From the NCBI GenBank assembly GCA_964393115.1, contig CAYMST010000001.1, positions 213 through 64,212 on the forward strand: a DNA stretch of 64,000 bases. Direction: 5' to 3'. The position numbers were made by a program, and so were the translations under genes. Shown here one piece after another: positions 49,063-50,408 of the stretch. How positions within the stretch are numbered: the first letter of the stretch is position 1; every line of letters begins with the position of its first letter. This stretch comes from an uncultured Roseivirgaceae bacterium. GTDB taxonomy: Bacteria > Bacteroidota > Bacteroidia > Cytophagales > Cyclobacteriaceae. The notes below the pieces were generated by a model. That model searched no databases. It had not been told where the DNA came from and saw only the letters and a program-made list of their open reading frames with translations.

Positions 49063-49464
49063 ATGGATGATAATGTAATAAAGCATCTGGAATTTACACA
49101 GAACATAATTTCTAGAATGGCTCAGAATTCTTTCTTAGTCAAGGGATGGGTAATTACTTTGGTTTCTGCTTTATTTGCTCTGTCCGCGAAAGAAGCCGAT
49201 GCGTCATACGTCTTAGTTGCCTATTTTCCAGCGCTTTTTTTTTGGTTATTGGACGGCTACTTTTTATATCAGGAGCGGATGTTCAGAAACATATATGATG
49301 ATATTCGCACACAAAAATCAACTGATTTTTCATTTGTTAGAAATGATCCCAACACGGGAACAAGCGATTGGGCAAAAGCCATATTTTCTAAAACACTTCT
49401 GTTATTTCATGGAGTCATTTTGCTCACATTACTTTTCATAATGTTTTACATCGAAAAACATTAA
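49063..49464 (+). CDS. Small 3-TM membrane protein, first gene of the TIR cassette
   Basis: 133 aa. An amphipathic N-terminal helix (IKHLEFTQNIISRMAQNSF) is followed by hydrophobic helices FLVKGWVITLVSALFALSA, YVLVAYFPALFFWLLDGYFLY and LLLFHGVILLTLLFIMFYI. Confidence 0.6.
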   Translation: MDDNVIKHLEFTQNIISRMAQNSFLVKGWVITLVSALFALSAKEADASYVLVAYFPALFFWLLDGYFLYQERMFRNIYDDIRTQKSTDFSFVRNDPNTGTSDWAKAIFSKTLLLFHGVILLTLLFIMFYIEKH

Positions 49465-49468
49465 ATGT

Positions 49469-49681
49469 ATGAGTTTGCTTGCCTCCATGTTCTTACAGAA
49501 CATAACTTCTAAAAATACAGTTGACTCTTCAACATATTTTATCTTCATTTTAGCCACTAATTTTACGACATGCATGATTGCAGCTTTAGGAGTAATTGAC
49601 ATTAGTATTCACTTTGAATATTTCATAAATATGAACTATGAGCCGAAAAAAAGAAGTATTTATCAGCTACAGCAGAAGTGA
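49469..49681 (+). CDS. Hydrophobic mini-ORF (70 aa) between the TM gene and the TIR gene; coding status uncertain
   Basis: It starts 4 nt after the upstream stop and overlaps the TIR ORF by 44 nt. It has one hydrophobic stretch (YFIFILATNFTTCMIAALGVI). Its frame is +1 away from the TIR frame across an A7 tract. Confidence 0.3.
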   Translation: MSLLASMFLQNITSKNTVDSSTYFIFILATNFTTCMIAALGVIDISIHFEYFINMNYEPKKRSIYQLQQK

Positions 49682-50408
49682 TACTCACTGGCTAGAACAA
49701 TTAAAACCGCACCTCAAGCAACTTACCTTGCAACATAACTTTCATTTTTGGGTAGATACGGAAACCAAACCTGGAGAGGAATGGAAGAAGGAAATAGACG
49801 GATATATTGCGAATTGTGAAGTTGCTCTGCTTTTGGTAAGCACTCAATTCCTCGCTTCTGATTTCATTAATAATGAAGAAATCCCACGAATACTATTGCT
49901 GGCAAAAAGACGTGGCGTTAAAATATTTGTTCTAGTATTAGATTTTTGTGTTTTCGACTCCGAGTCGCCGTTATATAAGTATCAATGCCTCAATGACCCT
50001 GAAAAACCACTTGAAGATCTAGATGAGATATCTGTAAAAAAGATATTCGTACAGACCGCGAAGGAGATACGGACTGTATTAATGGAAAATAGAGAAGATA
50101 AGTTAGCCGAGTTCGGTGGCTTGCCAATGGATGACTATCTACTTCTATCTGTAGTGTTAGCTGCTTTGGTAGAAAGCAAAGATGAGCAACTGTCAATAGC
50201 CGACCTTATGGAATTGGTAACGCTAGAGCGTGGTACTGTTATAAAGCTATTATTTCTTCTGGAAGAGAAGGGATTCGTCAGCAAAGAACGAGCCATGGAA
50301 GAGCGAAAAAAAAGACTCACCACAATGTGGCGAGTCTCGGATATGGGCTTTAATTTCTATCAAAAGTTTAAATCATCTTTGAACGCAGTTCTTGACCGCA
50401 CCAAGTAA
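49638..50408 (+). CDS. TIR-domain protein with C-terminal winged-helix (MarR/ArsR-like) domain
   Basis: N-terminus: KEVFISYSRSDTHWLEQLKPHL...CEVALLLVSTQFLASDFINNEEIP...GVKIFVLVLD (bacterial TIR_2 pattern). C-terminus: LSIADLMELVTLERGTVIKLLFLLEEKGFVSKE (wHTH-like). Confidence 0.8.
   Translation: MSRKKEVFISYSRSDTHWLEQLKPHLKQLTLQHNFHFWVDTETKPGEEWKKEIDGYIANCEVALLLVSTQFLASDFINNEEIPRILLLAKRRGVKIFVLVLDFCVFDSESPLYKYQCLNDPEKPLEDLDEISVKKIFVQTAKEIRTVLMENREDKLAEFGGLPMDDYLLLSVVLAALVESKDEQLSIADLMELVTLERGTVIKLLFLLEEKGFVSKERAMEERKKRLTTMWRVSDMGFNFYQKFKSSLNAVLDRTK

Follow-up and report, generated by a model that had tools for sequence, protein, structure and literature searches.

Organization of the cassette

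A stretch of 64,000 nucleotides from an uncultured Roseivirgaceae bacterium (contig CAYMST010000001.1, positions 213 to 64,212; this whole stretch is referred to as the window) carries a compact cassette of three open reading frames (ORFs), and the question it raises is which immune system, if any, these genes form. ORF1 encodes a small protein with three transmembrane (TM) helices, ORF2 is a hydrophobic mini-ORF, and ORF3 encodes a TIR domain fused to a winged helix-turn-helix (wHTH) domain. A preliminary description, made from the letters alone, had proposed an undescribed TIR-based conflict module. The reading favoured here, which is considered probable but far from secure, is that the cassette represents a chimeric anti-phage module of the Thoeris (TIR-signalling) type. 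ORF3 would be the sensor and signal generator; its TIR domain carries the candidate catalytic Glu, and a long helix links this domain to a winged helix resembling that of MarR. ORF1 would be a membrane effector of the PADLOC PDC-M50A family, corresponding to ThsF of type V Thoeris, and ORF2 would be a non-working leftover from the 3' end of a gene for a protein with four TM segments (4-TM). The cassette is not an unknown system; its effector family is already catalogued, and it is the TIR-wHTH sensor that is undescribed.

The coordinates, sizes and + strand orientation given for the three ORFs in the preliminary description were all reproduced, together with a gap of 4 nt between ORF1 and ORF2 and an overlap of 44 nt between ORF2 and ORF3 (Table 1). 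ORF1 lies 173 nt upstream of ORF3 on the same strand with only the ORF2 remnant between them, which by position amounts to operon adjacency. The independent metagenome assembly L102 exhibits 100% identity over positions 49449-50825, and because this second assembly is identical, the junction of the ORF1 stop, ORF2 and the TIR start is regarded as real and not as an assembly error.

The TIR-winged-helix protein

The N-terminal part of the ORF3 gene product matches the Pfam family TIR_2 (2.7e-14, residues 7-111), as well as the PADLOC models ThsB1 (1.8e-13) and SAVED_TIR. It contains the motif FISYS at residues 8-12 and LLLVSTQFLASDFINNEEIP at residues 64-83. In a phmmer comparison with the AbTIR NADase, DFINNEEI of ORF3 aligns over DWTNYE-L; the Glu in WTNYEL of AbTIR is the catalytic residue, E208. 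This alignment puts E80 and E81 at the position of the catalytic Glu with a one-residue ambiguity of register. E81 is invariant in all nine aligned relatives, for E80 this holds only among the five orthologues, and ORF3 retains every family-invariant residue. The TIR_2 match and the AbTIR alignment bear out the TIR_2-type domain, the FISYS strand and the Glu at the catalytic position that had been read from the translation, and the possibility raised at that stage of a TIR without a catalytic Glu is answered by E80/E81, which occupy the position of the AbTIR residue.

In the AlphaFold2 model of ORF3 (predicted local distance difference test, pLDDT, 78), a domain with the alpha/beta fold of TIR proteins is followed by a long helix and then by a winged helix whose wing is a beta-hairpin. 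The elements of the latter are helices at residues 164-179, 187-194 and 198-210, strands at 214-221 and 226-233, and a final helix at 235-255. Foldseek searches with the N-terminal half returned AbTIR, SARM1, TIR-STING and EcThsB2, and searches with the C-terminal half returned DNA-bound MarR-family proteins (E ~3e-4, probability 1.0). The winged helix of the preliminary description is therefore upheld by its fold and not by its sequence, for which the best E-value is 0.004 and all Pfam helix-turn-helix matches remain below the gathering score. According to the model, the C-terminal 90 residues share the fold and beta-hairpin wing of the MarR regulators HpaR, MepR, HsmR and OhrR, which are stand-alone proteins, whereas in ORF3 the domain is fused to an N-terminal TIR.

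A search of 5.8 billion proteins identified four full-length relatives of ORF3, so that five members are counted with ORF3 itself, and the winged helix is conserved only among these five TIR-wHTH orthologues. Scans of metagenomes and viruses for more TIR-wHTH proteins gave TIR-only matches and no further full-length relatives. A literature search found no paper naming a TIR-wHTH fusion, and no ORF3-like TIR is present among the rows listed in the available part of Table S1 of Yirmiya et al. (bioRxiv December 2025, 10.64898/2025.12.03.692087). The TIR-winged-helix sensor is rare and undescribed.

The three-transmembrane protein and its family

The ORF1 gene product contains three hydrophobic 19-mers (residues 24-42, 50-68 and 112-130). 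Its AlphaFold2 monomer model (pLDDT 84.7) consists of a long N-terminal helix continuous with TM1, a long TM2 with an extension, and TM3, in agreement with the N-terminal helix and three hydrophobic helices described before. ORF1 matches all four PADLOC models of PDC-M50A, the best with 1.4e-47 over residues 1-129 of 133, and it retains 16 of 16 family-invariant residues, making it a complete member of a family of ~130 aa. The earlier view of the TM gene as undescribed is superseded by this match. In PADLOC-DB v2, PDC-M50 is defined by two genes, PDC-M50A and PDC-M50B, and is a computational candidate only ('phage defence candidate'); a literature search for PDC-M50 found no paper that mentions it.

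Scans of Pfam and NCBIfam assigned no family to ORF1, and a fold search of its model against the PDB gave no match below E=1. A profile built from an alignment that included a homologue bearing leucine-rich repeats (LRR) produced a PDB search dominated by LRR matches, which was uninformative. An exhaustive profile search placed 5,417 representative clusters in the family at E<=0.001. Its members are found in Bacteroidota, Proteobacteria, Firmicutes, Planctomycetota, bacteria of the Candidate Phyla Radiation (CPR) and archaea, on plasmids and on one viral contig. The SLATT-type identity that had been suggested for ORF1 was rejected, as no Pfam SLATT match was obtained at E<=10 in 30 family members and ORF1 has three TM helices in place of two. 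Sub-threshold matches to Pfam DUF3278 (PF11683) were seen in 17 of 30 family members over residues 10-85, the best with E 0.0037; this similarity may reflect either a remote relationship or compositional likeness.

The neighbourhoods of ORF1 homologues were compared by fetching 80 genome loci and clustering the neighbouring genes, with 79 loci usable. A TIR gene directly adjoins the ORF1 homologue in 61 of the 79, and 55 of these TIR genes lie on the same strand within 60 nt; TIR genes are present on both flanks in 12 loci. These TIR neighbours match Pfam ThsB_TIR or TIR_2 and the PADLOC models PDC-M50B or ThsB, and the typical downstream neighbours match PDC-M50B. The family is paired with at least five TIR subtypes, including TIR_2-type TIRs as direct neighbours (e.g. 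at loci L038 and L052). Two loci encode a SLOG protein in place of the TIR, and in the 378-aa protein P0271 an N-terminal SLOG (LD_cluster2) domain is fused to an ORF1-type TM module. Many of the loci also carry methylases, restriction-modification genes or multiple TIRs. The recurrent association of ORF1 with TIR and SLOG genes is therefore the signature of a signal-activated effector. An association with SLOG is common to the SLATT effectors as well, and the two families may work in a similar way.

At several loci, among them positions 5207-7676 of L029 from Flavobacterium sp. SUN052, two or three different TIR genes of ThsB type surround a single ORF1 homologue, which suggests multiple sensors feeding one effector. 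A divergent member of the family is encoded together with two ThsB-type TIR genes beside a putative terminase ORF of 517 aa on an IMG/VR viral contig (L103, 1964-3678); this copy of the system would belong to a phage or prophage. In the 351-aa protein P0274, an ORF1-type module follows an 8xMP octameric-membrane-protein domain; the gene call may have joined two genes here.

Relationship to type V Thoeris

Thoeris types V-XI were defined by Yirmiya et al. (10.64898/2025.12.03.692087). In that work the type V effector ThsF is a 3-TM protein ('DUF2270, PF10028') modelled as a homo-heptameric channel with positively charged pockets between protomers and 'especially enriched in Bacteroidota', and type V systems were shown to defend. 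ThsF was activated by 3' cyclic ADP-ribose (3'cADPR) in one Bacillus system, and one type V system was unresponsive to this molecule. Three of the TIR subtypes found beside ORF1 homologues carry the label 'DUF2270 - Type V' in the available part of Table S1 of the same preprint, and one TIR so listed is ~90% identical to the L029 TIR whose stop overlaps the ORF1 homologue. A plasmid search led to the same relationship: ORF1 and the experimentally validated type V ThsB of B. thuringiensis match adjacent genes on the same Priestia, Terribacillus, Klebsiella and Psychrobacter plasmids, and an E. coli plasmid matched by ORF1 has an annotated TIR gene 13 nt downstream. Two further plasmid loci with a Bt-like ThsB (B. 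cereus and Priestia F20) both lack an adjacent TM effector. Based on neighbourhood and table labels, ORF1 is named 'PDC-M50A / ThsF-like', and both its mode of action and its classification are probably those of a type V effector.

The cassette and type V Thoeris have in common a small 3-TM effector adjoining TIR genes, the same TIR subtypes flanking ORF1 homologues and an enrichment in Bacteroidota, and by analogy the presumed logic is also the same, with a TIR-made signal opening an oligomeric membrane effector. They differ in that ORF3 is a TIR_2-winged-helix fusion outside the type V ThsB subtypes, in the gene remnant that separates ORF1 from ORF3, and in the sub-threshold score of PF10028 for ORF1. 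Type II Thoeris (ThsB with TM-Macro) and type VII (ThsB with SLATT) likewise combine a TIR signal generator with a membrane-spanning, cell-killing effector, but ORF1 contains neither a Macro nor a SLATT domain by Pfam and has three TM helices with no separate globular sensor domain. The separate '3TM' effector class, an untested one in the preprint, was considered as a label for ORF1 and rejected, since its TIR subtype 'ISHSW...NYSVP' never flanks ORF1 homologues.

The native partner of the sensor and the probable origin of ORF2

All four relatives of ORF3 are preceded by a gene that encodes four hydrophobic segments, is ~206 aa at full length and overlaps the TIR start by 8-14 nt; one of the four copies is cut off by a contig end. 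This 4-TM partner has no Pfam or PADLOC family, a plasmid search found no homologue of it, and it is unrelated to ORF1 (hhalign probability 0.2%). It may be a new Thoeris-type effector family. The synteny of the TM and TIR-wHTH genes that the preliminary description expected is thus not observed, as the partner of ORF3 in the four relatives is a different, 4-TM protein. The general idea of a TIR protein acting with a small multi-TM effector holds, both for the TIR-adjacent ORF1 loci and for the multi-TM gene at all four ORF3 orthologues; the specific pairing of ORF1 with a TIR-wHTH protein does not extend beyond this window.

ORF2 occupies the place of the 3' end of the 4-TM gene, and its frame has the same offset to the TIR ATG as the 4-TM gene in the relatives. 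In a gapless comparison anchored at this ATG, 8-12 of the last 45 codons of ORF2 encode the same residue as in the four partners, against ~3-4 expected (shuffle p 0.0002-0.006); no other offset scores as high, although the margin is small (7 vs 5). The program hhalign aligned ORF2 with the final 34 columns of the 4-TM family alignment (P=0.038). An ordinary tblastn search was not significant, and scans of Pfam, PADLOC and NCBIfam gave no family match. ORF2 also has the lowest GC content of the cassette (0.30). Judged by register and hhalign placement, ORF2 is probably a decayed 3' remnant of the native 4-TM effector gene and not a third component of the module, as had been supposed. The alternative that ORF1 and ORF2 together represent a single frameshifted partner gene of 206 aa was rejected: ORF1 is unrelated to the N-terminal part of the partner at the same hhalign probability, and is itself complete.

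Proposed function of the hybrid cassette

The proposed mechanism is drawn by analogy with Thoeris. Infection would trigger assembly of the TIR protein, and the ORF3 TIR would convert NAD+ to a signal derived from ADP-ribose. This signal would bind the conserved charged cytoplasmic helices of oligomeric ORF1, where the candidate binding residues are H8, E10, Q13, R18, N22 and K27 of the N-terminal helix and D64, Q70, E71, R75 and Y78 after TM2. ORF1 would then open or disrupt the membrane, and the infection would be aborted. The winged helix could serve in repression of the operon or could tie TIR activation to DNA binding, and the data fit both roles. As for the history of the locus, the simplest course would be that a ThsF-like gene took over the 5' two-thirds of the native 4-TM effector gene.

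Several observations weigh against this interpretation. ORF1 and a TIR-wHTH gene are paired in this window only, and for this reason their joint function draws no support from conservation; the distance between them is 173 nt of remnant, compared with the 1-20 nt that are usual between an ORF1 homologue and its TIR. The two-gene definition of PDC-M50 does not cover the cassette, since PDC-M50B has no match in ORF3. The preprint defines ThsF by PF10028 (10.64898/2025.12.03.692087), and this model has no match in ORF1 at E<=1. Over 37 members of the ORF1 family it matches four, with E 0.067-0.75 and at most 13 bits against a cut-off of 25 bits; it has no match in the divergent member on the viral contig, and precomputed Pfam matches are 0 of 240 among the ORF1 homologues listed. 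Because PF10028 remains below its cut-off, ORF1 is equated with ThsF through neighbourhood and table labels and not through direct comparison with a validated ThsF. The evidence that ORF2 is a remnant is modest to moderate because the four comparators are related to each other and not independent. The cassette also sits between housekeeping genes and the gene for a 4,333-aa surface protein, and not in a defence island.

The unique pairing, the remnant between the genes and the spacing that is atypical for the ORF1 family could also be explained if the native 4-TM effector had been destroyed by an orphan ThsF-like gene inserting there. The signal of ORF3 and the receptor ORF1 would then be mismatched, and the locus would be decaying or each gene would have its partners elsewhere. 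The type V system that ignores 3'cADPR also indicates that the matching of signal and effector is system-specific (10.64898/2025.12.03.692087). Such a breakdown is unlikely, though it must be taken seriously. Both ORF1 and ORF3 are intact with all family-invariant residues kept, the sequence is identical in a second assembly, and the pairing of the ORF1 family with at least five TIR subtypes, TIR_2 among them, implies that effector and TIR are readily exchanged. The intact state of both genes and the wide pairing of the family speak for a hybrid that may function; the uniqueness of the pair and the intervening remnant call for caution.

Thoeris-type systems are thought to be present in ~8% of prokaryotic genomes with ~30 effector classes, and the re-pairing of TIR sensors and effectors is a question that reaches beyond this locus. 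The cassette seems to keep the scar of one such event in the form of an old effector remnant lodged between the TIR gene and the new effector. Should the hybrid work, it would offer a convenient natural system for testing whether effector families have compatible signals; if it does not, the cassette would be an ordinary decaying defence locus. The locus also points to a rare TIR-winged-helix sensor accompanied by an uncharacterised 4-TM partner, a small downstream ORF and a conserved DNA block.

Flanking regions and the downstream conserved block

The presumed promoter region of the cassette contains a single weak sigma-70-like match at 48885-48914, obtained in a scan without Bacteroidota-type promoter models, and no inverted repeat was found there (48879-49062). 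The region downstream of ORF3, which had been described as an unassigned spacer, is 522 bp and is not featureless; its conserved block of 46 nt and its small ORF, the latter on the - strand, are common to all five TIR-wHTH loci (Table 1). The block is near-invariant in the five loci, and the flanking coding DNA has diverged. It comprises a hairpin (GGGAG-GGTTA-CTCCC) with A- and T-rich flanks and an inverted repeat (CGTC-N8-GACG), and a terminator-like match was found on both strands at 50413-50427. Comparison of the spacer with Rfam gave no match, and alignment folding gave no informative covariation and no supported RNA. The block may terminate transcription in both directions and/or serve as a site for a protein or RNA, for example for the winged helix.

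The small convergent ORF is open in all five loci, with 77 aa in the window and 81-104 aa in the other four. Its product is 38% identical to that of L002 and shares an M.NFV...R.P start and an ...AP end. Changes near the start codon are synonymous, the ratio of nonsynonymous to synonymous changes (pN/pS) is only 0.42-0.75, and the 46-nt block stays conserved across a frame difference between lineages. No Pfam match was found. The ORF is a candidate coding sequence and possibly the third gene of the native cassette. For the downstream region as a whole the candidates are a terminator acting in both directions, an operator bound by the winged helix and a third gene, alone or in combination.

An operator beside the gene would also fit a self-contained ORF3 that either depletes NAD+ or regulates transcription, with the TIR as effector or ligand sensor, the winged helix as output, and the membrane proteins as accessory factors or as targets of its regulation. 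The winged helix is similar to genuine MarR regulators in their DNA-bound form, the block with CGTC-N8-GACG adjoins the gene in all five loci, and many bacterial TIRs are NADase effectors, cases that the preprint explicitly excludes (10.64898/2025.12.03.692087). This explanation is nevertheless doubtful to a considerable degree. All five members have a tightly linked upstream multi-TM gene, which overlaps the TIR start in four of them and is the two-gene signature of Thoeris, and the ORF1 family is linked specifically to TIR and SLOG genes and not to transcription factors.

A more far-reaching proposal, offered tentatively and with little more than a modest chance of being right, builds on the chimeric Thoeris module. 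The TIR-wHTH protein, the 4-TM protein, the small ORF and the 46-nt block would together form an undescribed type of Thoeris, in which the winged helix couples the TIR signal to nucleic-acid recognition or to autoregulation at the block, and the window would capture an effector swap in situ with a ThsF-like channel reading the signal of a foreign TIR. If this is true, unrelated TM effectors share a signal.

Table 1. Positions of the cassette, its parts and flanking features in the window, and of the corresponding genes at the loci of the four ORF3 relatives (L001-L004)
Feature	Sequence	Position (nt)	Strand	Description
Upstream intergenic region	window	48879-49062	+	Presumed promoter, a role that is inferred; 184 nt, GC 0.315, without ORF
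ORF1	window	49063-49464	+	133 aa; PDC-M50A / ThsF-like protein with 3 TM helices; candidate membrane effector resembling that of type V Thoeris
ORF2	window	49469-49681	+	70 aa; probable decayed 3' remnant of ancestral 4-TM partner gene; similarity at ~49502-49636
ORF3	window	49638-50408	+	256 aa; TIR_2, linker helix and MarR-like winged helix
ORF3 TIR_2 domain	window	49638-50012	+	Residues 1-125
E80/E81 codons	window	49875-49880	+	Candidate catalytic Glu of the TIR, from alignment to AbTIR
ORF3 long linker helix	window	50025-50111	+	Residues 130-158
ORF3 MarR-like winged helix	window	50127-50405	+	Residues 164-256
Conserved 46-nt block	window	50409-50454	.	Directly after the TIR stop codon
Small convergent ORF	window	50436-50669	-	77 aa; present downstream of every TIR-wHTH gene
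4-TM partner gene	L001	5391-6014		
4-TM partner gene	L002	1284-1904		
4-TM partner gene	L003	2-520		
4-TM partner gene	L004	719-1414		
Small convergent ORF	L001	6776-7051	-	
Small convergent ORF	L002	2694-2939	-	
Small convergent ORF	L003	1287-1601	-	
Small convergent ORF	L004	~2180-2470	-	

Genomic context

The region between ~25 and ~48 kb of the window, upstream of the cassette, had been regarded as a 24-kb run of ORFans, but family matches identify ordinary housekeeping genes instead. Among others, these encode DUF4835, glutamine cyclotransferase, methyltransferase, glycosyltransferase, epimerase and FAD oxidase proteins, as well as MsrB, a TPM phosphatase, DUF2200, an M1 aminopeptidase, a nucleoside phosphorylase and SanA. 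The variable, defence-rich context that had been assumed for the cassette is accordingly replaced by housekeeping neighbours within the window.

These neighbours would suit a membrane-stress or signalling module of the Bacteroidota chromosome that uses a TIR domain for purposes other than defence, and PADLOC can call no system here because PDC-M50B is missing. A non-defence role of this kind is very improbable, given that the ORF1 family is found on conjugative plasmids, on a viral contig and beside restriction-modification genes and multiple TIRs. The ORF3 relative in Ekhidna sp. (L001) adjoins McrBC, and the related type V systems defend.

Beyond the small convergent ORF, a giant ORF of 4,333 aa extends over positions 50931-63932 on the - strand. 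Its product points to Bacteroidota as the source of the window: it seemingly contains beta-helix-like repeats, and its C-terminus resembles a sorting domain of the Bacteroidota type IX secretion system (T9SS).

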